Positions 13,849 to 28,160 of a stretch of DNA of 64,000 nucleotides are shown here, one piece after another (position 1 is the stretch's first letter; each line of letters starts with the position of its first letter). The notes under the pieces were generated by a model that searched no databases, was not told where the DNA came from, and saw nothing but the letters and a program-made list of their open reading frames with translations. The DNA comes from a virus (Duplodnaviria; Caudoviricetes). The stretch is from positions 1-64,000 of IMG/VR virus record IMGVR_UViG_3300021256_000056. One strand, written 5' to 3'. A program made the translations under genes and the position numbers.

Positions 13849-14535
13849 ATGTGCCGTTGCGATTTTTTTAACAATCTTTTTAATAAGCCAATAAATACTG
13901 GTGAAACAGTTGAGACTGCGGAAACAACGTCCTCAACGGAGGTTGTTATTGCAACTCCTAAGCCTGAAGAGGAAGAAGAACCAATTTTAACAGAAAAAGA
14001 TATGGAGCGTCTCGAAATAGAAAAAGACATCATTGATTACGCACTCAAAATGGGCGAAGGAAAAGTGCGTTTTATTAATCAAATAGCTGTACATTGTACT
14101 GCCACTAAGGAAGGAAAGGAAGTTACAATTGAAGATATTGATGCCTGGCATAAAGCACGGGGGTTCAAGAAACAAAAAATCAGCGGACATTATTGTGGAT
14201 ATCATTATGTTATCGCTTTAGATGGTACTATAATGTGTGGACGAGTCTTAAGTGAAACTGGTGCGCACGTGTCTGGCTATAATTCAAATTCAATCGGTGT
14301 TTGTTATGTGGGCGGCCTTGATGGAAATATGAAACCAAAAGATACGCGCACTCCCGAACAAAAAGAGGCATTAAAATGGTTGATAGCAACACTCAAAAAA
14401 TATCTTGGTATAAAAATAGTGAAAGGCCACAGAGATTATTCCCCCGATACAAATAATAATGGAATAATTGAAGAATTTGAGTGGATTAAGAGTTGCCCTT
14501 GCTTTGATGCCATTCCTGAATATAAGACCATTTAA
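13849..14535 (+). CDS. N-acetylmuramoyl-L-alanine amidase (T7 lysozyme-like endolysin)
   Basis: AVHCTAT, GYHYVI, GAHVSGYN, GHRDYSP, KSCPCFD. Confidence 0.92.
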   Translation: MCRCDFFNNLFNKPINTGETVETAETTSSTEVVIATPKPEEEEEPILTEKDMERLEIEKDIIDYALKMGEGKVRFINQIAVHCTATKEGKEVTIEDIDAWHKARGFKKQKISGHYCGYHYVIALDGTIMCGRVLSETGAHVSGYNSNSIGVCYVGGLDGNMKPKDTRTPEQKEALKWLIATLKKYLGIKIVKGHRDYSPDTNNNGIIEEFEWIKSCPCFDAIPEYKTI

Positions 14536-14815: not shown

Positions 14816-15682
14816 TCAAGATAAAACCTGACGGAGTTTTTCTGTTACATTATCTATTGGAACAATCTCATAAGTTTTATCATCTTTAAGCCATATTATG
14901 CGCCTTGCCAATACTTTTAATCCAATATCTTCCAAAGGGATTTGATAAGCGGACAACTGAATTGTATATGCCCCGAGTGGTTCATCATAAAGATTGTCGA
15001 AGGGCGGTAACATCATTTTGTCGTTCATCCTAGAAAACTCCTTATATATGTCACCGTTTGTTTTCCAGTCACAAATGACAACGCCGCTTTTTGCAGGATT
15101 TGTTGGGTGTTTATAATATAGCAGTAAGTCGAACGTTCCAGCATAGTTTTCTCTAAACCGCGGGAGGTTTGGATTAGGGCTGCTATATATCCTCGTTTCT
15201 GGCAAAACAACCCAAGTGTTTTGGGGAAATTCATTCCAAAACTTTAATGCCGCTTCCTCTTTGGGACGTGTGGGTATAAGCCAATTCTTTTCTGGAATAT
15301 ACTTACACAGATTGTCTTCGGTTATGTTTTCTGGGTGTCCAGTATGCATCCAGCCAAGGCTCTCGGCATATGCATGAACTAATGTGCCAGTTGTTGTAGC
15401 TTTCAGATTTTTGAATTTCCATTGGTCCTGCCAATATTCGGGGGTTTCCCCGTGCTTTTCAGCGTAGGCTATGGATTTTTCAACGGCGTCAAACTCATGC
15501 TCATATCTGCTGGCAATGGCAGAAACTGATTGTAATTGTTCACCGTTTAAAAAATATTTATGCCCTTCTTCAATAAATTCCAAACCTTCAAAAGATGATA
15601 GAATTTTCTTTCGAATCTCTGTCACCTCTTTAGGTTCTCCAGGAACTACTATATTATACTTACTTTCGTCTCTACTCGGCAT
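14816..15682 (-). CDS. PD-(D/E)XK exonuclease
   Basis: GTLVHAYAE, AGTFDLL, ICDWKTN, YTIQLSAY. Confidence 0.85.
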   Translation of the reverse strand: MPSRDESKYNIVVPGEPKEVTEIRKKILSSFEGLEFIEEGHKYFLNGEQLQSVSAIASRYEHEFDAVEKSIAYAEKHGETPEYWQDQWKFKNLKATTTGTLVHAYAESLGWMHTGHPENITEDNLCKYIPEKNWLIPTRPKEEAALKFWNEFPQNTWVVLPETRIYSSPNPNLPRFRENYAGTFDLLLYYKHPTNPAKSGVVICDWKTNGDIYKEFSRMNDKMMLPPFDNLYDEPLGAYTIQLSAYQIPLEDIGLKVLARRIIWLKDDKTYEIVPIDNVTEKLRQVLS

Positions 15683-15909: not shown

Positions 15910-16305
15910 TCACCGTATCCCATGTTTAGCCTCCTGTATCTTTTCTTTTAAACGTCGCTGTTGCATTTTTCTCATAATAACTTCACCATGGCATGGAAGC
16001 GGAGCGCAAACACAGCCCAAATATATCTCCTCTCCCTTTACGTATTTATCGTAAATTTCATCAACCACTTTTTTAAACTCTTTATTGCCGCCATACATAA
16101 CATCAAAATAATGGGAATATTTTTCGATTGCTTCTTCTCTAGATTTAACAACAAATCTTGCAAGTGTTTGTCTATCTTTAATATGCGTGTATGGATTCCC
16201 AAGAATGTAAGGGCGATGAATAAAATAATTATTCTCGTCTTTTTCGTGGTTTTCTGTATTTATGTTGTAAACGTGAATCATATTCTGGAAAACAATTAAA
16301 ACCAA
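15910..16305 (-). CDS. DUF4326-like protein
   Basis: RPYILGNPY...LGCVCAPLPCHGEV. Confidence 0.75.
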   Translation of the reverse strand: MVLIVFQNMIHVYNINTENHEKDENNYFIHRPYILGNPYTHIKDRQTLARFVVKSREEAIEKYSHYFDVMYGGNKEFKKVVDEIYDKYVKGEEIYLGCVCAPLPCHGEVIMRKMQQRRLKEKIQEAKHGIR

Positions 16306-17081
16306 TCATTTCCTTCCCATACAGACGGGTCAAAAGAGGGGAGGTTTATTACCCTGCGTTTAAACTCAGATTTTTCATGCATGCGGTTTATCTTTTCGAG
16401 GACGCTTGGCTCGGGTTCTATTCCATCTCGAATATATTTATCCAGAGTCTCATAGGTAAAGCCGAATTTAGCCTCATCTGTCTGGCTATGCGGTAATCCA
16501 TCGTCGGGCGTTTTCCAAACCAGTTCACGTGGAAGCCCTAGTGCGTCTCCCAAATTACGTATCTCAGTAACAGTTAACTTTGCAAGAGGACTAAAATCCC
16601 CTACACTATCTCCCCAAATTGAACTATAGCCAAGAAAGTCTTCTGAGAGGTTACATGTGTTTGCTACTCTACCATTTAAACTTTGGGAAATATAATATAA
16701 GACACACATCCTAACCCTTGGAGGTAGATTCTGTTCGGCCTGTTTACGGTGTTTTATGCCGTCCTCGTTGCATCCTTCCCAATTAACCATTTTAGCATAA
16801 TTATAGAAGAATGAGTCCGTTATATTGTTGATAGGAAATGTGAAGAGTTTTATCCCAAGAACTTCGGCGACTTTTCTAGCTTCTTCGTCGCTTTGGCCCA
16901 CATCTGGTATGGAAACGCCTATTACCCTTTCAGGTCCGAGAGCCTCTACACACAGTTTGGCAACAATGGTAGAATCTTTACCGCCAGAAATACCGATAAT
17001 AGCATTACATTCGGGTCCATTGATTTTAAACCAGTCCCTAATCCACTGTATGCATTTTTCTTTTACTACATTATAATTCAT
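16296..17081 (-). CDS. nadE: NH3-dependent NAD+ synthetase
   Basis: GISGGKDS, RVRM, TCNLSEDFLGY...GD, KTPDDGL, SEFKR; no glutaminase domain. Confidence 0.93.
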   Translation of the reverse strand: MNYNVVKEKCIQWIRDWFKINGPECNAIIGISGGKDSTIVAKLCVEALGPERVIGVSIPDVGQSDEEARKVAEVLGIKLFTFPINNITDSFFYNYAKMVNWEGCNEDGIKHRKQAEQNLPPRVRMCVLYYISQSLNGRVANTCNLSEDFLGYSSIWGDSVGDFSPLAKLTVTEIRNLGDALGLPRELVWKTPDDGLPHSQTDEAKFGFTYETLDKYIRDGIEPEPSVLEKINRMHEKSEFKRRVINLPSFDPSVWEGNDWF

Positions 17082-17339
17082 AGTCCCGCTCTTTTTTTAA
17101 AATCTTCAATAATTTTTTCTATTTCTGATATGTCATCAATTGACCAGCTTTTAGTCTTGATATTTATGAATCTTGCCACCCCGTTGTTTCGGGCTGTAAG
17201 CGTCATTTCTTGTGCTTCTTCTTCCCCGTCCTCTCCCGAAGAATCAGACTTCTGAGCATAAGTGACAGAAACGGTATCTACAATAATTTCCCCATCCTCA
17301 TAACTACCTTCTTCGAAAGGCACTATTTTTGTTTCCATA

Positions 17340-17942
17340 TTAAAGATTTTTGTTTAATTTATTTTTGCTAAACTTATTAACGAAGTCGTGTAGGTTGTGT
17401 GCTCTTGTCAATGTCTGGCAATTAGATGCCTTTAGAATTTCTTTAATGTCCTTGTCTTTGTTATAAGGTGCGTCAATTAATATTCCGTGTTTGACATTTG
17501 AGCCGATGAAATTCCAATCATTATCATCAATGAGGTAGTCTGCATGTAATAACGTTTTATCTTTTAAAAAACAAATGCCATCACATTCAATACCGTTTTT
17601 TTCAAGCCATTGCAGAGTCTGCATTTTATTGTCATATGACTTTTGGTAAGTTAGAATGACCACTTTTCCATAATTCCGCAATGTTTCAATGTCCTCTTTG
17701 ATATAAGGGAATGGTTCTGTATTTAAAAATAGCTCAGTACTATGGTCCTGAAAAAACCACTGGCTGGCAGTAACGCCAGTCTGTGATTCAATTTCAGGAA
17801 ATGACTTTTCCACCTTAAAATCGGTAATGTCTTCGCGTTTTTTACTATTTTCGAAGTTATCATTATATAAAGCAATCATTTTGTCCAATAATTGCCTCAA
17901 TACTTCGTCACAATCAATAGCAAAGACGAGGTCTCGTTTCAT
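17340..17942 (-). CDS. 5'(3')-deoxyribonucleotidase (HAD)
   Basis: AIDCDEVL, YLIDD, APYN. Confidence 0.8.
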   Translation of the reverse strand: MKRDLVFAIDCDEVLRQLLDKMIALYNDNFENSKKREDITDFKVEKSFPEIESQTGVTASQWFFQDHSTELFLNTEPFPYIKEDIETLRNYGKVVILTYQKSYDNKMQTLQWLEKNGIECDGICFLKDKTLLHADYLIDDNDWNFIGSNVKHGILIDAPYNKDKDIKEILKASNCQTLTRAHNLHDFVNKFSKNKLNKNL

Positions 17943-18319
17943 AAATTTAAACTTTTGTTTGTTGTTTGAGAAAACAGTCTATCTGTTCCCCTGACATGCC
18001 CTGTCGCGCCCAGCCGTCTTCTAGTGTTTTCTCTATATACATCCATCGGCCACCGAGTTTGGCTGCAGTGCCTAGTCCACAAAAAAGGTGGTCTCCCATG
18101 TAATAACGCCAGGGTCCATTGGTACTTGATTCTGGTATCGCAACAATAAACGGGGCTTCTTCAAAAGGAACGTCACTCGGTTCACGCTCAGAAAGTGGAA
18201 TCCATTTTGAGTAATGTCCTGGGCGTAGAGCACCTAAATCAACAAGCTTTTCACCATCGTGCTGGTGTGCATAGTCCACATAAAGATGCTCGTAGCCCAC
18301 TTCGAGTTCGGGGTCAAAT

Positions 18320-18814
18320 TCACTTAACTTCTGAATCAATTCCTTTACTTTCATTTTCTTTTGCTTTAAGTTCTGACGGTTTAGCTTCAACAATTTCTAT
18401 GTACGCGCCGCAATAAGGACATGCAACATATGAAACTAGAGAATCATCCGCATCTAGCCCATACTCATCCAAAATTGGATTTCCGTTTTCGTCAAGCATT
18501 TCTGTGTCACCCCATACTTCGGAACGCATGAAATCGCTCTGCCATATGATATGACTACCACATTCGGGGCATTCCCCATCGTAACCATGACTGGAGTCAC
18601 AAAAGCCTTCCTGAAGTTTTTCGTTGAATGCGGGGTAGTTTTCCTTCTCTTCTGGGTCAACGGGTGTTACAGTATAATATGTTAAGCAATGTGGGCATTT
18701 GTATTCTGCCACACTACCAAAATTCTCTTCCTCATCGTAAGGAGGGGTGATACGGTCTTCATCATTAACCTTTATAAGCGGTTCACCACACCGCATGCAA
18801 CGTGGAGTTTCCAT
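18320..18814 (-). CDS. multi Zn-ribbon protein
   Basis: four CxxC motifs. Confidence 0.65.
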   Translation of the reverse strand: METPRCMRCGEPLIKVNDEDRITPPYDEEENFGSVAEYKCPHCLTYYTVTPVDPEEKENYPAFNEKLQEGFCDSSHGYDGECPECGSHIIWQSDFMRSEVWGDTEMLDENGNPILDEYGLDADDSLVSYVACPYCGAYIEIVEAKPSELKAKENESKGIDSEVK

Positions 18815-19296
18815 TATTCAGTCTTCTTTTTTCTTGTTGTGGTTTTCTTTCCGCCAGTCGCGGAGGCTTTCTTTGCCGTAGTATTCTTAGTGGCTTTCTT
18901 TGTAGGGGCCTCTGGCTCAGTAGTTACTACGGTTTCGCTGGGGGTGTCCTCGATGACGGTCCACATGCTTTGGAGCTTTTCAATGTCCCTGGGGGTAAAG
19001 AGAACAGAATCGTTAAGGAAGTCAATAATCTTATACTTATTGCCTTCGATTTCGACAACCCTAAATCCGTCTGGCTGTACCTCCTTTACGCATTGAACCA
19101 ACAGGGGGTCATGATACTTAATATTATCGTTGAGGTTCTTGCCGTGGGCTAAGAGCCAATCCACCATTTCTTTGGTGAGAGCATTTTTTGAAAGCGTTTT
19201 AACAACAACTTCGTGCCTTTTTACAACAGTTTCTTCTGCCATTTTACTTTGTTTTTATTTTATTATGTTTTGTGCAAATATATAAAAAAGTTTTGA

Positions 19297-20445
19297 TTAA
19301 TCAAAGCCTTCATTCTGATGTTCATTCAAGATTACAAATATTGAGATGCCTATATTATAAAGTAAGACTAATATTAAAAGGATAATATATCCAGTTTTAG
19401 TCATATCAACTTTAATATACTTGAAATCTTTAAATTCTTTCCTGTGCCACAAGTGTAAATTATCAATCGCCCAATCCTTAAATGAGAAAAGGTCTAACTT
19501 TTGTTGTTCCAGAAAGAAATTTTTAGTATTAACCGCCATTTCGGGCGCATCTTCCCAAGAAAAGACATAACACCAATCAATTTTTCTGTCAGGTTTTACT
19601 CCAAGGCAAATAACTAACTCATTTTTGTTGCCACCATCCCAATAAGATTGTTGTTTAAATGCTGTTTCAATGCCTTTTCTATAGTCAAAAAGCAATATAA
19701 ACAAACGTATTTGATGTTTGGCACCGTAATATCCGTTAATGTATTTTATTGCATCAATTTCTGAGGATAACGGCAGGACATCGCATTTTGACAAAACGGG
19801 CAATTGGTCTTGAGAAGAAATTTTTGGATAATCAAACAAGCCGTATTCTTTAGCATCTTCTTTACTTATTTCGTCTAATTTAAAAATCGACTTAGAGCAT
19901 CGCACCCTATTTTCGTATTGGTGGTCAATCGTCAGCGTACGAATAGTATTTTCAGTACCTAGCCAAAAGTAATCTTGTGCATCACCATCTTTTGTGTAAT
20001 AGTGCCTGTGCATATCAACAAACACCATGGGACTACCAAAACGCATTCTTATTGCATTAAACTCCCTCTCATATAGTGAGGCTTCATAATTAAAACTGCT
20101 GAAGTATGTCCATCGCTCTGGATGATACTCCCTATATGAGCAGTCATATGTTTCGGTTTCGTAAATTGTATTACCGTCTTTATCTCTTCCAACTGGAACT
20201 TCTCTGGTGCATCTACGTTCTATCCACTCGTCCCAATCGTCGTAGTGTCTCACTTTGGTTACATATCCTCCGAGATACTCGGTGTCCGTCATTCTGACGG
20301 AGACTGAAATTGCCTTTGTTAATACCGCAAATAAGAGGGAGGGTACAATTACAAGGACATACTCCCACCATGTGGCTTGCTTTCTAAACAGAGCAAACAA
20401 AATGATGGAAGTAATAAAAGGAATAGCGTATAAAACGATTTCCAT
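19297..20445 (-). CDS. membrane protein
   Basis: two N-terminal and one C-terminal transmembrane helices. Confidence 0.7.
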   Translation of the reverse strand: MEIVLYAIPFITSIILFALFRKQATWWEYVLVIVPSLLFAVLTKAISVSVRMTDTEYLGGYVTKVRHYDDWDEWIERRCTREVPVGRDKDGNTIYETETYDCSYREYHPERWTYFSSFNYEASLYEREFNAIRMRFGSPMVFVDMHRHYYTKDGDAQDYFWLGTENTIRTLTIDHQYENRVRCSKSIFKLDEISKEDAKEYGLFDYPKISSQDQLPVLSKCDVLPLSSEIDAIKYINGYYGAKHQIRLFILLFDYRKGIETAFKQQSYWDGGNKNELVICLGVKPDRKIDWCYVFSWEDAPEMAVNTKNFFLEQQKLDLFSFKDWAIDNLHLWHRKEFKDFKYIKVDMTKTGYIILLILVLLYNIGISIFVILNEHQNEGFD

Positions 20446-20457
20446 TAACTAGCCCAA

Positions 20458-20991
20458 TTAAAAGAGTGAGACGTCATCATCGAGACCTGTTTCCATGGTT
20501 CGTTTAGCCTTTGTTGATGATATAATCGTATAATCTATAGGGGTTTTATTTGTGACAAACCATTTACTAGGATAAGTAGAAATAAGGACTTCATGCTCCC
20601 TTATCAAATCTATCATCCTTTCCTGGGAATGCTGAAATTCGGTCCTAAGGATTTCAATAGACTGCATCAAGTCTTTGTAAAGTGAAGCATCAAACTGGGG
20701 ATTGGCTTCGTGAATAACTTTGAGCAGAGGGTCGCTTTCGCCAGAATACCTGCCGCCAATAATATCAGCATAAATCTCATGGAACGATTCTTTATATTCG
20801 TTCGATACCTGGGCCTTTTGCTGAACAACCTTCCACATCTTGTCGTAGACGCCTTCAACCTTCCCCTTTTGGGCATCACATTCTTTCCTCAGGGAAATTT
20901 CCCTATTGTTATAAGAAAAATACATTGAGGCTAGAACTATCCCTCCAAGGGCAACCACCACGATTAAAATAAGACTAACAATTCTATTCAT
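20458..20991 (-). CDS. membrane-anchored LemA-like protein
   Basis: N-terminal transmembrane helix, then SYNN...KMWKVVQQKAQV helical domain. Confidence 0.55.
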   Translation of the reverse strand: MNRIVSLILIVVVALGGIVLASMYFSYNNREISLRKECDAQKGKVEGVYDKMWKVVQQKAQVSNEYKESFHEIYADIIGGRYSGESDPLLKVIHEANPQFDASLYKDLMQSIEILRTEFQHSQERMIDLIREHEVLISTYPSKWFVTNKTPIDYTIISSTKAKRTMETGLDDDVSLF

Positions 20992-21002
20992 GATTCTAAT
21001 TT

Positions 21003-22565
21003 TTAAAAATTACTACCATTAAGCCTCTGGCGAATATCGCTAAGAGTCTCTTCTTTTGTAAGTTTTCCGTTCACAAAAATTGTTTCGAGCAGAGTGTCTT
21101 TCCTGGATTCATCCCAAGTAAGTCCATCCTGATATTTGATTGTGCCATCTTCGGAATAGACCCTGCAGCAGCCTTTCTGAGACTTCTTGAAGTTTCCTCC
21201 ACCATCTTCTCTGTCGGTCTTGGGGTCCTTATAGACAGGCATTTTATGGACATGGCCGTTCTCGTCTGTGAATTCAGCGTAAATGGCCTTAATTGCAGCT
21301 CCGAAGGTGTCTCGCGTGAAGGGCAAGAGGTCCGTTTCAAAAGTTCCGTCGAGTCTATCCTCTTCAATGCAATGCATAGAGAAAGAACCGACGCCAAGGC
21401 TTACATTTTGGGCAGCAAATCCGTTCTCGGCAAGAATCTCATAGATTCTTTCGGCCCTCTGGATGGTAATAGAGTCGCCATAAAGCGCCTTTACATGCGG
21501 ATTGAGTACTTTGTATCCTTTTGAGTTAACAGTGCCGCCAAACGTCTTCCAAAGTTCAAAAACAGTTTCAGTGACAACCTTCACACAGTCTCCGCTATCC
21601 CCGCGGACAAGGAAGCACCCATTGTGGGCAAGAATCTCGTCCTTAAGAGTGGGTAAAATATTCTTAACAACGTTCCAGTAGTCATAAGAATCACAAACAC
21701 AGCTGAATGAGGCGTTGGGATAATATTCCGTTAAAAGTTTCTTAAGGAATACCCTTTCCCTATGCGGGTCAATGGCTTCGTACTCGTAATTCTTTTCCCT
21801 AGCACAATCAAAAGCTGAATTAGAGCACATTACGAAATGCTCAGTGGAAATTGCGCCGAAAGCCACCTCCTCTCTCTCACAATCGCAATTGTAGTTTTGC
21901 TCAAGATAAGGAATTACTGGAACTGTTGCGCTGTTAACGAAAGACAAGCACCAACCAGCACCTGCCTTCAATGCTGCATCAAGACCCTGGTCCCCGCGAA
22001 AGTCGAAATTTCCGAGAGCCCTTCTGCGCGGAACGTTATCTTCACAGGTCTTGTCATACCACTTATCCACAATCTCCCTATAAGAATGTCCTACGGTTGC
22101 ACAAATCATAGGATACCACATTTCCGCAGAAATCAAGGATTCAAGAGCCTGCCCGAGCCAGGCAAAGTCGGGATGCGTGTTGGTTATACCGAAAACTGGT
22201 ACATGGATTGGAACTACCGTTCCCTCGGGAAGCGATACTATTTCAATGGGAAGATAGCCAAGCTGGTGAAGTTTTCTAACTTTCTCGAAGTCGGCAATTC
22301 CCTTGCCCATGGTAAGCTCGATGTAGTGTTTATACTCCTCCACAACCTCATTTTCGGGGCGATTGAAGAAGTTCTCGTTGAAATAATCAATGAGGTAGGT
22401 TTTGCAGAACGCCTGCAGACCGAAATTAACTACACCGTTCCACCTTCTTACGCGACTCATTCTGGGGGTGTAATATGACACAGATTTCGTCATCCCCTTA
22501 GGGAGTAATTCGCAGTGAATCGCTTTATAGAAATCTTTAAGTAAAAGTGCGTTTGTTTTAAACAT
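21003..22565 (-). CDS. Nampt/Namat-family phosphoribosyltransferase (possibly nicotinate-specific)
   Basis: DFYKAIH, FDFRG, STEH, CDSYD, VRGDSGD, YGDSIT, KDPKTD. Confidence 0.88.
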   Translation of the reverse strand: MFKTNALLLKDFYKAIHCELLPKGMTKSVSYYTPRMSRVRRWNGVVNFGLQAFCKTYLIDYFNENFFNRPENEVVEEYKHYIELTMGKGIADFEKVRKLHQLGYLPIEIVSLPEGTVVPIHVPVFGITNTHPDFAWLGQALESLISAEMWYPMICATVGHSYREIVDKWYDKTCEDNVPRRRALGNFDFRGDQGLDAALKAGAGWCLSFVNSATVPVIPYLEQNYNCDCEREEVAFGAISTEHFVMCSNSAFDCAREKNYEYEAIDPHRERVFLKKLLTEYYPNASFSCVCDSYDYWNVVKNILPTLKDEILAHNGCFLVRGDSGDCVKVVTETVFELWKTFGGTVNSKGYKVLNPHVKALYGDSITIQRAERIYEILAENGFAAQNVSLGVGSFSMHCIEEDRLDGTFETDLLPFTRDTFGAAIKAIYAEFTDENGHVHKMPVYKDPKTDREDGGGNFKKSQKGCCRVYSEDGTIKYQDGLTWDESRKDTLLETIFVNGKLTKEETLSDIRQRLNGSNF

Positions 22566-23438
22566 ATTTGTCTTTTTTTTAAAAGTCTTTATAGAGTTTT
22601 TCTTCACGAGGAATGAACCAGTCGTCATAGAGAAAGTTCCCTATGCCAATAATGGCGTCACCAAGTTGGCCGTTTCCTTCGAACTTTGCCCTTATGGGTG
22701 CCCCTTTTAAATCTTTTAGATTTGTGACTCCACAGATGTCCATAATACGTTTTACCGAATAAGCAAAAGTGTTTTTATGAAAATCCCCACTATATGGCCC
22801 CCAAACGCTAAATACTACTCCCCCTCCGTCCTGGAGGTCTAATTCCAAGCACAGTTCAAGACTCATAGAATATTGTTCCGATATCCTGAGCCAATAGTCC
22901 CTAATTACGGCGTTCTTGGGGTTCATCGTGTAATCCTCTTGGTGTACTTCTGGTTATGGGATACAATTACCCTAGACTTGAAGGTAAATTCATTGGCCAT
23001 TAGGGATGCGGCACTAAGAGCTCGGCAGACTTTAAGAAGTCTCCTGGTTATCCTCCTGCATGCCGTGTTATATGCTTTTGATTCAGCGATGGTCCTGGCG
23101 ACTTTCTTGCCCGTCAAGATGTTAAAGGTGTCACCGTGTTTACAGGTTGCTACGCCCACAGAAACATCTCCCATGAGAGAATCGTTACCTGTTAACTTGA
23201 AGATGTTTCGCATTGCGCTGGGAACATTGATTGAATAGTTAAGGCGGCACTCTACGATTCCCTTGTCGGAATCTACGAAATAATTTTCGGCCCGAAAACT
23301 AAGCTTGATGTTTGACCTGTCAAAAAGTAATTTGTTCATATTTTTAAAAATTTTGTAGTATAAAATAAAAACGGTAGTCAAGGCATCTTTCTTGACCACC
23401 GCAAATATACGAAAAAAAATTATACTACCAAAAAAAAA

Positions 23439-24125
23439 TTAATTATTATCAACTTTTTTCCCGTTAGCAGATTCAAAATCTGCTGTAAGGGTGTTGCACT
23501 CCTGAGCAATAGCACATGACATTGCCAAAGATTTTGTTTCACTACTGCCACTCATGGTACGATAAGAATAAAGGGCCGTATTTACTACGTCATAATTGCT
23601 TGACACGTTAGCTTTTGATGAGTATCCTCGATTCTTGAAGCCGTAACTTTTGGCTGTACTTGCATCGGTAATGTCGGTTCCGAGATACATGAAAGTCCAG
23701 TTATATTTCTCTTCCTGATGCTTAATCATCTCCTTTACCTTTTCGAAAGAATATTCCTTTGAATTATTCTCCTCTCCGTCGGTCATGATAACGATAAGGT
23801 TTTTCTCTGGCTTGTCTTCTTCTTTCATTCCATCAAGCCATTTGCCAACTGTGTCGATGGCTATACCGATACCGTCATTCATGGCGGTCATTCCGCCAGG
23901 GGCATACTTGCCATCAAGGTAATCGACTTCGTTTACATCTTTCCCAAGATAAACTTCTTTTACATCGGTTTCAAACTTAAAAAGTGATACGGAGCATGTA
24001 CCGTCTTTGATAGCTTTCTGCTCGTCCACTACGCGTTTAAATCCGCCAATAACGTCTTCTTCGGAGCCACTCATTGACCCACTTTCGTCAATGACGAAAC
24101 ATACATGAATGTAGTTGTGTTTCAT
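23439..24125 (-). CDS. standalone vWA domain protein
   Basis: MIDAS DESGSM, GGMTAMNDGI, IMTDGEEN. Confidence 0.88.
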   Translation of the reverse strand: MKHNYIHVCFVIDESGSMSGSEEDVIGGFKRVVDEQKAIKDGTCSVSLFKFETDVKEVYLGKDVNEVDYLDGKYAPGGMTAMNDGIGIAIDTVGKWLDGMKEEDKPEKNLIVIMTDGEENNSKEYSFEKVKEMIKHQEEKYNWTFMYLGTDITDASTAKSYGFKNRGYSSKANVSSNYDVVNTALYSYRTMSGSSETKSLAMSCAIAQECNTLTADFESANGKKVDNN

Positions 24126-24156
24126 TTAATTGTGCAATTTTATTTTTATTATTATT

Positions 24157-25032
24157 TTAAAGAACTGTAATTTTTTTGTGTTTAAGTGAGAAAATGCTGT
24201 CGGTTGTGTACAAACCCTCTACAGTATTATCGTTCAACACTTTAATAAAAGAACCTTTTTCTTCGTCTAGAATGCTGTTCTCTGTATGGGTAGCATATGC
24301 ATAAATCTTATCCGCCCCCAATTCCTTGAGACGTAGCGCACTGTAATATAAGGTACCGCCATAAGAAATGATATCATCAATCATTACGATAATTTTTCCT
24401 TTAAGCGCATCTTCTCCGTCTATTGCGGTTGCATTTTCATCAACCACACGAAGGGATTCGATTGCTCCAGTTTCCCAATTACGTACTTTTTGACCATATA
24501 CTTTCTTGTAAGATTTTAAACAATCCATCTCCCGATATCTTTTATATGCACCAGCATCAGGAAAATAGATAACAAATGCATCGACTGGTGGTAATTCCGC
24601 TTGGCGTCCTCTTATGCTAGTTAAAACATATTTTATGTGACGCTCGGGACTGTCCACACAAACGTGATTAAGAAGTGCAACGCCTACGTCTGAGTGGGGG
24701 TCAAGAACATGTACCTGCCTAAAATTTAATGAATTGATAAATTCGCAGAAATATTTTAAGGTAAACACCTCATTTTCGTGCTTAACCCTATCCATTCGTG
24801 CGTTGGGGAGATATTTCATAACCAAGTCTATTGGAGTATTTTCACCCTTTACACTTCTGATATGCTTTACAAGGAAAAACAATGTCATGCATTCCTCGTC
24901 ATTCTCGTAATGCCAGAAGATTTGGTCCACAAATTCCGAGCCAGTACACAAGCCCTCAATATTGAGGAGCATTTGTGTACCATCAGGGAAATGGGTGTGA
25001 CCAATTTTATTAAACGCGTTAAGGCTAAGCAT
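24157..25032 (-). CDS. ribose-phosphate pyrophosphokinase-like protein (possible ADPR-PP synthetase, Adps)
   Basis: FPDG, YLPNARMDR, LDPHS, FPDAGA, IDDIISYGGT. Confidence 0.85.
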   Translation of the reverse strand: MLSLNAFNKIGHTHFPDGTQMLLNIEGLCTGSEFVDQIFWHYENDEECMTLFFLVKHIRSVKGENTPIDLVMKYLPNARMDRVKHENEVFTLKYFCEFINSLNFRQVHVLDPHSDVGVALLNHVCVDSPERHIKYVLTSIRGRQAELPPVDAFVIYFPDAGAYKRYREMDCLKSYKKVYGQKVRNWETGAIESLRVVDENATAIDGEDALKGKIIVMIDDIISYGGTLYYSALRLKELGADKIYAYATHTENSILDEEKGSFIKVLNDNTVEGLYTTDSIFSLKHKKITVL

Positions 25033-25582
25033 CTTCGTTTATGATATTAATTTGACACATTTTCATTGTTGTGAGCGCAGCTTTGTGTGTTTCGGGAGTG
25101 ACACCAGCACAACAAGCCGCATCGACGGTGATTTCGGACTTCTCATAAAGTGCCGTCTTCGCAAGTAGTGCGTTAGAAACAACACATATGTCAGTGCAAA
25201 AACCTACGAATTCCACGTCACACTCTCTGTTATCAAAACAGTCGAGAAAATCAAAGAGTTCCACGCTGCCAAACGTTGGTTTATTAAAATATGTTACTGG
25301 AATATTACGAAGCGTGGCGTCGTCGAGCGCGGCTTTTACATTGCTTTCTATATTCCAGCCTTCCGTATCTTTGATACAATGCGTTACTGGAAGCTTTTGC
25401 CCTTCCTTGGTCTCAAGATAATTTTCTGGATGTGTATCCTGAGTGACAAAAATGAGGTCGCCGTTGAATTCCCTAATTTTTTTAACGATGTTGGGAACTT
25501 TCTTAATGGCCTCTTCGTTACGCAGTGAACCTGTAATGAAGTCATTCTGAACGTCAATTACTACAAGGATTTTCTTTTTCAT
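25025..25582 (-). CDS. pncA: nicotinamidase (cysteine hydrolase)
   Basis: VIDVQNDF, TQDTH, HC...GW, KPTFGS, GFCTDICV. Confidence 0.85.
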   Translation of the reverse strand: MKKKILVVIDVQNDFITGSLRNEEAIKKVPNIVKKIREFNGDLIFVTQDTHPENYLETKEGQKLPVTHCIKDTEGWNIESNVKAALDDATLRNIPVTYFNKPTFGSVELFDFLDCFDNRECDVEFVGFCTDICVVSNALLAKTALYEKSEITVDAACCAGVTPETHKAALTTMKMCQINIINEDA

Positions 25583-26276: not shown

Positions 26277-28160
26277 TTACGAAACAGGACCATTATTGCC
26301 AGTAAACCCTGAGAATGCATCTCCAAAGTTAAATCCTCCTGTGCCGCCGCCATTGGGGCCTGCCTGCTTATAAAGATTGTCCGTGACAGAATGCCAGGTT
26401 GCTTCAAGGGTGGTTCTTGCATTATCAATTTTGGCGATATCTCCGTCCTTTAAAGCATCTTTAAGTGCTTGGGTCTCACTTTCAAGTTTTGCTTTTTCTT
26501 CCTCCGAAATTTTACCTTCAAGGTCTTTGAGCTGCCTTTCGGTCTGGAATACAAGAGCATCGGCCTGATTAACCTTGTCTACTCTTTCCTTGGCCTGCCT
26601 GTCAGATTCAGCATTTTCCTCGGCCTCCTTTCTCATGCGTTCAATCTCCGCGTCCGAAAGGCCAGATGATGCCTCAATCTTGATGTGCTGTTCCTTGCCT
26701 GTTGCCTTGTCTGTGGCAGAAACACTAAGGATACCATTGGCATCAATATCGAATGTTACCTCGATTTGAGGAATGCCTCGCATAGCGGGGGCGATGCCAT
26801 CCAGGGTAAACACGCCAATCTGCTTATTGTCCTTTGCCATAGGGCGTTCACCCTGACAGACAACAATCGTAACGGCGGGCTGATTATCTGATGCCGTAGA
26901 GAAGATTTCACTCTTCTTGACTGGAATGGTGGTGTTGGCGTCGATAAGCTTTGTCATAACGCCGCCCATCGTTTCGATACCGAGTGAAAGTGGTGTTACG
27001 TCAAGAAGAAGGACATCCTTCACATCACCAGCAAGGACCCCACCCTGAATTGCCGCACCCATTGCAACAACCTCATCAGGATTGACACTCTTATTAGGCT
27101 CCTTACCAAAGAAATTCTTCACTGCTTCCTGTACCTTCGGAATACGCGTTGAACCACCGACAAGGATAACTTCGTCAATATCACTTGTGGAGATTTTTGC
27201 ATCGGCAACGGCCTTTCTGCAGGGAACAATAGTCTTTTCTACCAAATCATCAGTAAGCGCCTCGAACTTTGCCCTCGTAATTGTCTGTACAAGGTGCTTA
27301 GGAACGCCGTCAACAGCCGTGATATATGGAAGATTAACTTCGGTGCTTAGCTGGCTAGAAAGCTCAATTTTGGCCTTCTCTGCAGCTTCCTTGAGGCGCT
27401 GATGAGCCATCGGGTCTTTACGAAGGTCAATACCCTCAGATTTCTGGAACTCATCGGCGAGATAGTCGATGAGCTTTTGGTCGAAATCATCGCCACCAAG
27501 ATGAGTATCACCATTAGTTGACACCACTTCGAACACTCCATCCCCCAATTCAAGTATTGAAATGTCCATAGTTCCTCCGCCAAGGTCGTAAACGGCGACC
27601 TTTATATTCTTGTCGGTTTTATCGAGGCCATAGGCAAGGGCCGCTGCCGTAGGTTCGTTGATGATGCGCTTCACATCAAGACCCGCAATTTTGCCTGCTT
27701 CCTTAGTGGCCTGACGCTGAGAATCTGAGAAATATGCAGGAACGGTAATGACCGCCTCTGTTACTTTCTGTCCGAGATATGCCTCGGCGCTTGCTTTAAG
27801 GTTTTGAAGAATTACAGCGGAAATTTCCTGAGGGCTATAAAGTTTATCCCCAATTTCTACTCTTGGAACATTACCATCACCCTTGGTGACTTTATATGAA
27901 ACTCTCTTAGTTTCTTCTGAAACTTGTTCCATTGTTTCGCCCATGAAGCGTTTAATTGAATAAACGGTTTTTTGAGGATTAGTGACAGCTTGCCTTTTTG
28001 CTGGATTTCCTACCTTTCTCTCATCTCCATCGGTAAAGCCAACAACCGAGGGCGTTGTCCTACTTCCTTCATTATTAACAATAACGGTGGGCTGCCCACC
28101 TTCCATGACCGCTACGCAGCTGTTCGTAGTTCCGAGGTCGATTCCAATAATCTTACTCAT
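26277..28160 (-). CDS. dnaK: Hsp70 chaperone DnaK
   Basis: [28 protein letters not shown]; full length. Confidence 0.98.

Follow-up and report, generated by a model that had tools for sequence, protein, structure and literature searches.

A candidate nicotinate-type variant of the NARP1 pathway in an uncultured tailed phage and its relatives

Four genes of an uncultured tailed phage (Duplodnaviria; Caudoviricetes) probably encode a deamidated, nicotinate-type version of the NAD+ restoration system NARP1. In this version nicotinamide would be converted to nicotinate and ADP-ribose (ADPR) to its pyrophosphorylated form (ADPR-PP), and the two products would be joined to nicotinic acid adenine dinucleotide (NaAD), which is amidated to NAD+. 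The genes lie in the first 64 kb (hereafter the window) of a 195-kb viral contig, IMG/VR record IMGVR_UViG_3300021256_000056, with an estimated completeness of 53%. A first-pass annotation of the letters of the window had proposed such a four-enzyme variant of NARP1, and the proposal is supported on comparative grounds: a clade-wide switch of the transferase base pocket, linkage with PncA and NadE, phylogenetic nesting among NARP1 enzymes, neighboring Macro-domain genes, and missing adenylyltransferases. The four co-stranded genes within 9.3 kb from which it started (16296-25582) are all real and lie on the minus strand at the stated coordinates:

25025-25582, minus strand: PncA-like nicotinamidase, 185 aa, isochorismatase fold (PF00857, 6.5e-19)
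24157-25032, minus strand: Adps-like (Prs-fold) enzyme, 291 aa (phrog_619, 3e-57)
21003-22628, minus strand: Namat/Nampt-like transferase, longest open reading frame (ORF) 541 aa (phrog_448, 4e-152)
16296-17081, minus strand: NH3-dependent NAD synthetase NadE, 261 aa (PF02540, 2e-50; TIGR00552)

The predicted pathway would begin with the cleavage of NAD+ to ADP-ribose and nicotinamide by an NADase defence of the host. The PncA-like enzyme would hydrolyse nicotinamide to nicotinate and ammonia. The Adps-like enzyme would convert ADP-ribose and ATP to ADPR-PP and AMP, and the Namat-like transferase would then combine nicotinate with ADPR-PP to form NaAD and pyrophosphate directly. In the last step NadE would amidate NaAD to NAD+ at the expense of ATP and ammonia, and the ammonia freed by PncA could be consumed here. 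As there is no mononucleotide intermediate in such a route, an adenylyltransferase (NadD/NMNAT) would not be needed. The substrates of all four enzymes are predicted from sequence comparison, and this applies above all to the NaAD-forming step. Possible reasons for the detour through nicotinate are an irreversible pull exerted by the two extra steps, trapping of the pyridine as charged nicotinate, and hosts which deamidate nicotinamide quickly; the pathway may have originated where nicotinamide is unavailable in these hosts or removed. In the literature searched, no description was found of a NARP1 of the nicotinate type, of ADPR-PP being converted to NaAD, or of an association of PncA and NadE with phage NARP systems, and the papers on NARP1, NARP3, aRES, RyDEP, the Namat structure, phAss-1, and gut vitamins do not describe the pathway.

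The transferase belongs to the Namat lineage. Its closest solved relative is SPbetaL1 Namat (9w5w/9w5x, E 1e-105), with which it shares 41% identity. The probable start is Met22 at 22565, giving a protein of 520 aa that is 100% identical to a public gene call of that length. In the structural comparison with NAMPT and Namat suggested at the first pass, the AlphaFold2 model (pLDDT 94.2) had the SPbetaL1 Namat structures 9w5x/9w5w as its top Foldseek matches (TM 0.92), and NadV of Haemophilus ducreyi (PDB 9ke8) and mammalian NAMPT ranked below them. The protein did not match the equivalog models of nicotinate phosphoribosyltransferase (NAPRT; TIGR01513 and NF006695). Its sole NCBIfam match was the NadV-type model NF006629, with 404.8 bits against a cut-off of 405.

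The base pocket of this enzyme is remodelled. The peptide SFVNSATVP is encoded at 21918-21944, and in the HMMER alignment its alanine, Ala234, falls on Asp215 of SPbetaL1 Namat (9w5x; human NAMPT Asp219) and on the amide-binding Asp of Xanthomonas NAMPT. The alanine read by eye at the Asp219 equivalent in the first-pass annotation is therefore borne out. The two altered stretches, located by translation and the first also by alignment, are the following:

21927-21935, minus strand: codons Asn232-Ser233-Ala234, equivalent to Gly213-Thr214-Asp215 of SPbetaL1 Namat
21837-21848, minus strand: codons from Ser261 (equivalent to Ala242 of the nicotinamide pocket) through the catalytic His264

A total of 97 viral sequences of the Ala type were compared with 78 of the SPbetaL1 (Asp) type. 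At position 215 all 97 have Ala and all 78 have Asp; at position 242 all 97 have Ser and all 78 have Ala. Position 213 is Asn, Lys or Arg in 97/97 Ala-type sequences, as opposed to Gly in the SPbetaL1 type. Of the seven nicotinamide-pocket residues named for SPbetaL1 Namat (PMC12774641), only Asp215 and Ala242 are changed. The rest of the active site is retained: D13, Y15, F189, R192, His245, R306, D308, G360, D361, G390, S391, R399, and D400 are kept in the Ala clade, the Nampt-like catalytic core (phospho-His, Arg306, Asp308, Phe189, Arg192, Asp13', Tyr15') is invariant or nearly so in 97/97, and the catalytic His is invariant in both clades. Of the adenine clamp, which is otherwise altered, Arg40, Phe392, the TRD motif, and GSF (aromatic at its position 3) are kept.

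In SPbetaL1 Namat, Asp215 hydrogen-bonds nicotinamide, and the D215A mutation lowers nicotinamide-dependent NAD+ formation about 8-fold (PMC12774641). Studies of human NAPRT and Xanthomonas NAMPT agree with the role that the first-pass annotation gave to this residue, the selection of nicotinamide over nicotinate: the Asp recognises the amide, its negative charge should disfavour nicotinate, and NAPRTs have Ser at the same position (PMC4442680, PMC10907753). As the defining Asp is absent, the window protein should not be filed as a nicotinamide-using Namat. Among the non-Asp enzymes, triplets at positions 213, 215, and 242 follow the pattern X-(A/S)-S, so the constraint appears to be no acid at 215 plus a hydroxyl at 242, as would suit a carboxylate-binding pocket.

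The pocket switch marks a single clade. Among 1.84 billion cluster representatives, 150 relatives of the transferase were found, and the triplet is G-D-A in 87 of them and X-(A/S)-S in about 55; the residue at position 213 of the non-Asp representatives is N, K, S, P, A, R or L. On a tree built without the triplet columns, loss of the Asp is a single change, and Ala and Ser exchange at least six times inside the non-Asp clade. The Asp-to-Ser variants were considered as an independent switch, but they fall inside this same clade. The Ala clade is monophyletic (98, starred) and sister (98, starred) to the SPbetaL1 Namat group, with ICP1 Namat branching deeper and KVP40 NadV as the outgroup. Being nested in the Namat tree, it sits between two lineages with assayed pathways. 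The three pocket changes are kept throughout the clade, which spans less than 45% identity.

Many Namat-like representatives (P0123, P0137, P0141, P0146, P0186, and others) have lengths of 800-1100 aa and align to the query as two to three separate segments, interrupted near query residues 235-256 and 332-340. The hit in Bacillus phage Kirov is also in two pieces. The transferase genes of the long representatives may contain inteins or other insertions.

The neighborhood of the transferase differs between the two clades. Viral loci were collected for 97 Ala-type and 82 SPbetaL1-type (Asp) enzymes, and a gene was counted as linked if a homologue lies within 10 kb of the transferase:

PncA homologue: Ala-type 88/97, Asp-type 0/82
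NadE: Ala-type 89/97, Asp-type 0/82
Adps homologue: Ala-type 91/97, Asp-type 73/82

Most of the shortfalls fall on truncated contigs, and the four genes occur together in about 90% of the 97. At least three gene orders are found (PncA-Adps-Namat-NadE, Adps-Namat-(Macro)-NadE-PncA, and NadE-PncA-Adps-Namat), with the set always on one strand. Three Ser-type relatives, 43-48% identical to the window transferase, have the same neighbours and lie beside a terminase or HNH gene. Because the set is kept in viral, bacterial, and Ser-type loci and through these rearrangements, its clustering is not chance. The combination is rare in deposited phages: of 50,697 records, 2018 have a Namat/Nampt homologue and only 8 a homologue of the window PncA, all of them uncultured gut phages. 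One of the 8 is the complete code-15 phage phAss-1, which carries the same module; the phAss-1 paper contains no discussion of it. Distant NadE matches also occur in three deposited phage contigs, but these have no Namat-like gene nearby and hence provide no independent case.

A Macro-domain gene lies inside 43 of the 97 Ala-type modules (44%), compared with 15/82 Asp-type loci (18%). It resembles the ADPR-1''-phosphate phosphatase Adpp, which is reported in 15% of NARP1 operons (bioRxiv 10.64898/2026.01.28.702374). By this resemblance, the putative phosphatase ties the module to ADP-ribose. No Macro-domain gene was found in the contig of the window itself.

The Adps-like protein points in the same direction as the transferase. 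It is 34% identical to SPbetaL1 Adps by TBLASTN (39% in another match, E 1.7e-36), while its match to Bacillus subtilis Prs has an E of 3e-12. In the phylogeny it falls in a starred clade with the SPbetaL1 Adps group, a pattern that mirrors the transferase tree. The hairpin K-x-R-[DN]-x-x-T-G-x-I is common to the window protein and the ICP1 and SPbetaL1 Adps; Escherichia coli Prs reads KRRP-RANVSQV here. The catalytic residues of Adps (Lys185 on the β-hairpin, Asp212/Asp213, His121, Asp161, Arg87) are all conserved, and E. coli Prs has them too. Asp216 of the PP-loop is Ser in the window protein, as in SPbetaL1, and the adenine contact Phe92 is Lys, at a position where Adps proteins vary as well. 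In the assay by which its authors tested for PRPP (phosphoribosyl pyrophosphate) synthetase activity, SPbetaL1 Adps yielded no product.

The closest solved relative of the PncA-like protein is the Pyrococcus horikoshii nicotinamidase 1im5 (E 1e-12, full-length alignment). Both the catalytic triad (Asp/Lys/Cys) and the metal site (Asp-x-His...His) align with 1im5, and 89 homologues show little or no variation at D10, K101, C133, D49, H51, and H68. The protein scores below the NCBIfam equivalog cut-off (28.5 versus 174). NadE passes its model clearly (TIGR00552, 165.9 bits versus a cut-off of 63.65) and, as it has no glutaminase domain, should be ammonia-dependent.

The module is not phage-specific. 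In bacterial assemblies 80 loci were found, all of the Ala type, and 61 of the 80 have all four genes. The carriers are mostly Lachnospiraceae, Ruminococcus, and Oscillospiraceae and include isolates. In Konateibacter massiliensis (L262) and Ruminococcus albus 8 the module is flanked by ordinary chromosomal genes; the R. albus loci (L237/L213/L209) have a module without its own nadE. Viral and bacterial transferase sequences interleave in the tree. Each of six searched bacterial isolates with the module has a second NAPRTase-family gene, which in K. massiliensis and R. albus 8 is a canonical NAPRT, PncB (NF006695, 687-697 bits versus a cut-off of 469). Since canonical PncB is already present, the Ala-type enzyme is not simply the NAPRT of these hosts. 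With slightly less confidence than for the window itself, the Ala/Ser-type enzymes as a whole are also considered likely nicotinate ADP-ribose transferases which make NaAD in one step. Their partnership with PncA, Adps, and NadE would amount to a self-contained route of NAD+ recycling that is widespread among the Clostridia of gut and rumen and has been exchanged repeatedly with their phages, jumbo phages included.

The transferases from bacterial assemblies closest to the window protein (L196, L197, L198) come from metagenome-assembled genomes labelled Saccharibacteria or Nanosyncoccus and are probably mis-binned jumbo-phage contigs. The cultured gut and rumen Clostridia that carry the module are culturable systems for testing the pathway.

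The first-pass annotation saw no NadD/NMNAT in the window, and no PF01467 match was found there. The search beyond the window answered the same question in part: the whole 195-kb contig has no PF01467 match either, with the caveat that it is 53% complete and a nadD in the remainder is possible. Eleven clade genomes are complete or near-complete (rated 98-100% complete or deposited as complete). A NadD/NMNAT-like gene is absent from eight of these, and a ninth has only CoaD. NMNAT/NadD-type genes thus occur in 2/11 genomes, and in about 4% of modules. Among phages with a PRPP-using Nampt of the KVP40 type, 94% encode Nmnat.

Several observations weigh against the proposed NaAD-forming route. 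Apart from the incompleteness of the genome, the four genes of the window are interrupted by unrelated genes and may not form a single transcription unit. The contrast of 97 with 82 viral loci is one clade against another and not 179 independent trials, because the Asp was lost once; its evidential weight comes from the duration for which the gene set has persisted and the number of rearrangements it has come through. One complete relative (G003) lacks NadE. An archaeal-type NMNAT-like gene lies inside the module in three relatives (L009:9451-10014, L031:12246-12836, L040:7252-8031), in L009 directly upstream of the transferase, and a complete 245-kb genome has a NadD-like gene 7.6 kb away (L193:1414-2025; 104.5 bits versus a cut-off of 112.45). 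The adenine clamp is also altered: Tyr396 at clamp position 7 is Cys, a Phe precedes TRD, and an insert of at least 8 residues, modelled as a β-hairpin (pLDDT about 73-91), splits the GSX...TRD motif. The preference for ADPR-PP may therefore be weakened, and donor preference could have drifted. SPbetaL1 Namat itself also uses PRPP in vitro (PMC12774641).

The altered clamp, the use of PRPP by Namat, and the NMNAT-like and NadD-like genes of relatives favour the best of the rival explanations, a Preiss-Handler booster working through the mononucleotide. PncA would supply nicotinate and the Prs-like protein PRPP, and the Ala-type enzyme, as a NAPRT analogue, would make nicotinic acid mononucleotide (NaMN). 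Conversion to NaAD would fall to NadD of the host or, occasionally, to a phage NMNAT/NadD, and NadE would finish. The pocket switch alone points to nicotinate and not to the ribosyl donor, Namat-family enzymes can use PRPP, and where the bacterial module lies beside ordinary genes NadD is always available. This explanation is nevertheless unlikely. Both enzymes are nested in validated Namat and Adps lineages, and the hairpin is of the Adps and not the Prs type. The SPbetaL1 Adps result in the PRPP-synthetase assay, the frequency of Macro-domain genes, which point to ADPR substrates, and the scarcity of adenylyltransferases relative to the PRPP-using NARP2 phages all argue against it, as does the canonical PncB of the two checked isolates and the second NAPRTase-family gene of all six. 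The relatives with NMNAT/NadD genes and the one without NadE are compatible with some flux by way of NaMN, or with dependence on enzymes of the host. The NMNAT/NadD genes suggest that some lineages additionally run a mononucleotide branch. A transferase that accepts both donors is possible and compatible with the NaAD-forming route.

A second alternative is an ordinary nicotinamide-using NARP1 that tolerates Ala, with PncA and NadE as unrelated passengers which boost host NAD+ metabolism in parallel. SPbetaL1 D215A keeps about 12% activity, and human NAMPT binds both bases according to the titles of PDB entries 6ta0 and 6ta2. However, PncA would then destroy the substrate of the transferase. 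In addition, the three pocket positions switch together and stay switched across the whole span of the clade, and the PncA/NadE linkage survives rearrangements and phage-bacteria transfers while being absent from all 82 Asp-type loci. This alternative is very improbable. Least probable of all is a transferase with a different pyridine or base as its substrate, or one whose product is an NAD analogue or signal mimic, with NadE and PncA processing that compound. Nothing direct favours it beyond the variable position 213 and the unexplained clamp insert, whereas the nicotinamidase signature of PncA is complete, NadE matches the NAD synthase model above its cut-off, and the simplest compounds linking the two are nicotinate and NaAD.

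Every long ORF between 16.3 and 25.6 kb is on the minus strand. In the order of transcription an unknown 220-aa ORF is followed by the PncA-like gene, the Adps-like gene, a VWA-domain protein, two small unknown ORFs, and the Namat/Nampt-like gene, and then by a phrog_1383 and a phrog_2087 protein, three small ORFs, an NT5C-like nucleotidase, an 86-aa ORF, and NadE. The PncA-like and Adps-like genes share 8 nt, at the end of the former and the start of the latter. A distance of 1.5 kb separates the Adps-like from the Namat-like gene here, and the two are adjacent in most relatives. A promoter and terminator scan stayed at chance level and gave no operon structure, and no match to the region was found among cultured and deposited phages at the nucleotide level. 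The annotated neighbours are as follows:

23439-24125, minus strand: VWA-domain protein between the Adps-like and Namat-like genes (PF00092, 1.2e-8; phrog_7371)
20458-20991, minus strand: virion structural protein (phrog_1383)
19297-20445, minus strand: phrog_2087 protein
17340-17942, minus strand: NT5C-like HAD 5'-nucleotidase near nadE (PF06941, 2.2e-20)
15910-16305, minus strand: DUF4326 protein (PF14216, 2.1e-13; phrog_464)

The intervening genes (VWA, NT5C, DUF4326, and the ORFs of 86, 115, 142, 148, 158, 164, and 220 aa) were considered as parts of the module and rejected, as they are not conserved with it. A VWA homologue is near the module in only 5/97 Ala-type loci, and the protein is probably outside the pathway. 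An NT5C-like homologue is found near the module in 6/97 Ala-type and 0/82 Asp-type loci; the enzyme could trim a phosphorylated intermediate or serve unrelated dNMP metabolism, and its tie to the module is uncertain. The virion structural and phrog_2087 genes split the transferase from nadE in the window, while the module is compact in most relatives. The start of the DUF4326 gene overlaps the end of nadE by 10 nt, and the DUF4326 protein is seen again only in one other locus (L003). Directly upstream of the module lies a full-length Hsp70/DnaK homologue of 627 aa (26277-28160, minus strand; PF00012, 1.8e-259), and a 61%-identical copy occupies the same position in a complete 355-kb relative (L004). 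Past nadE and the DUF4326 gene there are an Amidase_2 endolysin-like gene (13849-14535, plus strand) and a phrog_298 exonuclease gene (14816-15682, minus strand).

NAD+ depletion is among the commonest bacterial strategies against phages, and NARP1, NARP2, and NARP3 are the known phage answers to it. If the nicotinate branch is real, it would include a new enzymatic reaction, from nicotinate and ADPR-PP to NaAD, and three pocket residues would retune a Nampt-fold enzyme from an amide to an acid. In phages the pathway would defeat NAD+-depleting immunity, and it would be abundant in gut and rumen phages and in the chromosomes of Lachnospiraceae and Ruminococcus. The module genes are currently annotated as nicotinamide phosphoribosyltransferase plus ribose-phosphate pyrophosphokinase. 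The prediction also matters for models of how the gut microbiome metabolises niacin, in which these genes count as NadV.

Among the known systems, NARP2 (Nampt and Nmnat, Vibrio phage KVP40) and NARP3 (PnuC and NadR, PMC13464706) are likewise encoded by phages and restore NAD+ against NAD+-depleting defence. NARP2 uses PRPP and needs Nmnat, in contrast to the window contig with no PF01467 match, and NARP3 imports nicotinamide riboside; neither is deamidated or has a Prs-like partner. Preiss-Handler salvage (PncA, PncB, NadD, NadE) likewise starts with nicotinamide deamidation and ends with NadE amidating NaAD, and its NAPRTs, which have Ser at the base-pocket position, resemble the window clade with Ala or Ser. 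The window transferase, however, is of the NadV/Namat lineage and not PncB, its module has no NadD, and a Prs-fold Adps homologue is present.

The closest known system is NARP1 (Adps and Namat; SPbetaL1, Bas63, ICP1; bioRxiv 10.1101/2024.02.11.579819, PMC12774641, PMC13586617). In NARP1-AP, the form with the Macro-domain ADPR-1''P phosphatase Adpp (bioRxiv 10.64898/2026.01.28.702374), the system is extended on the ADPR side. The relatives of the window share the Macro-domain gene in part, but the window module is extended on the pyridine side, by PncA and NadE. As in NARP1, a Prs-fold Adps homologue is paired with a Nampt-fold transferase, which keeps the ribose, phosphate, and catalytic residues of Namat together with Arg40, Phe392, and TRD. 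It differs from NARP1 Namat in Asp215→Ala, Ala242→Ser, Gly213→Asn, the clamp insert, and the missing Tyr396. With a nicotinamidase and an NAD synthetase added, the module has four enzymes and would spend more ATP, and the predicted product of its transferase is NaAD instead of NAD+.

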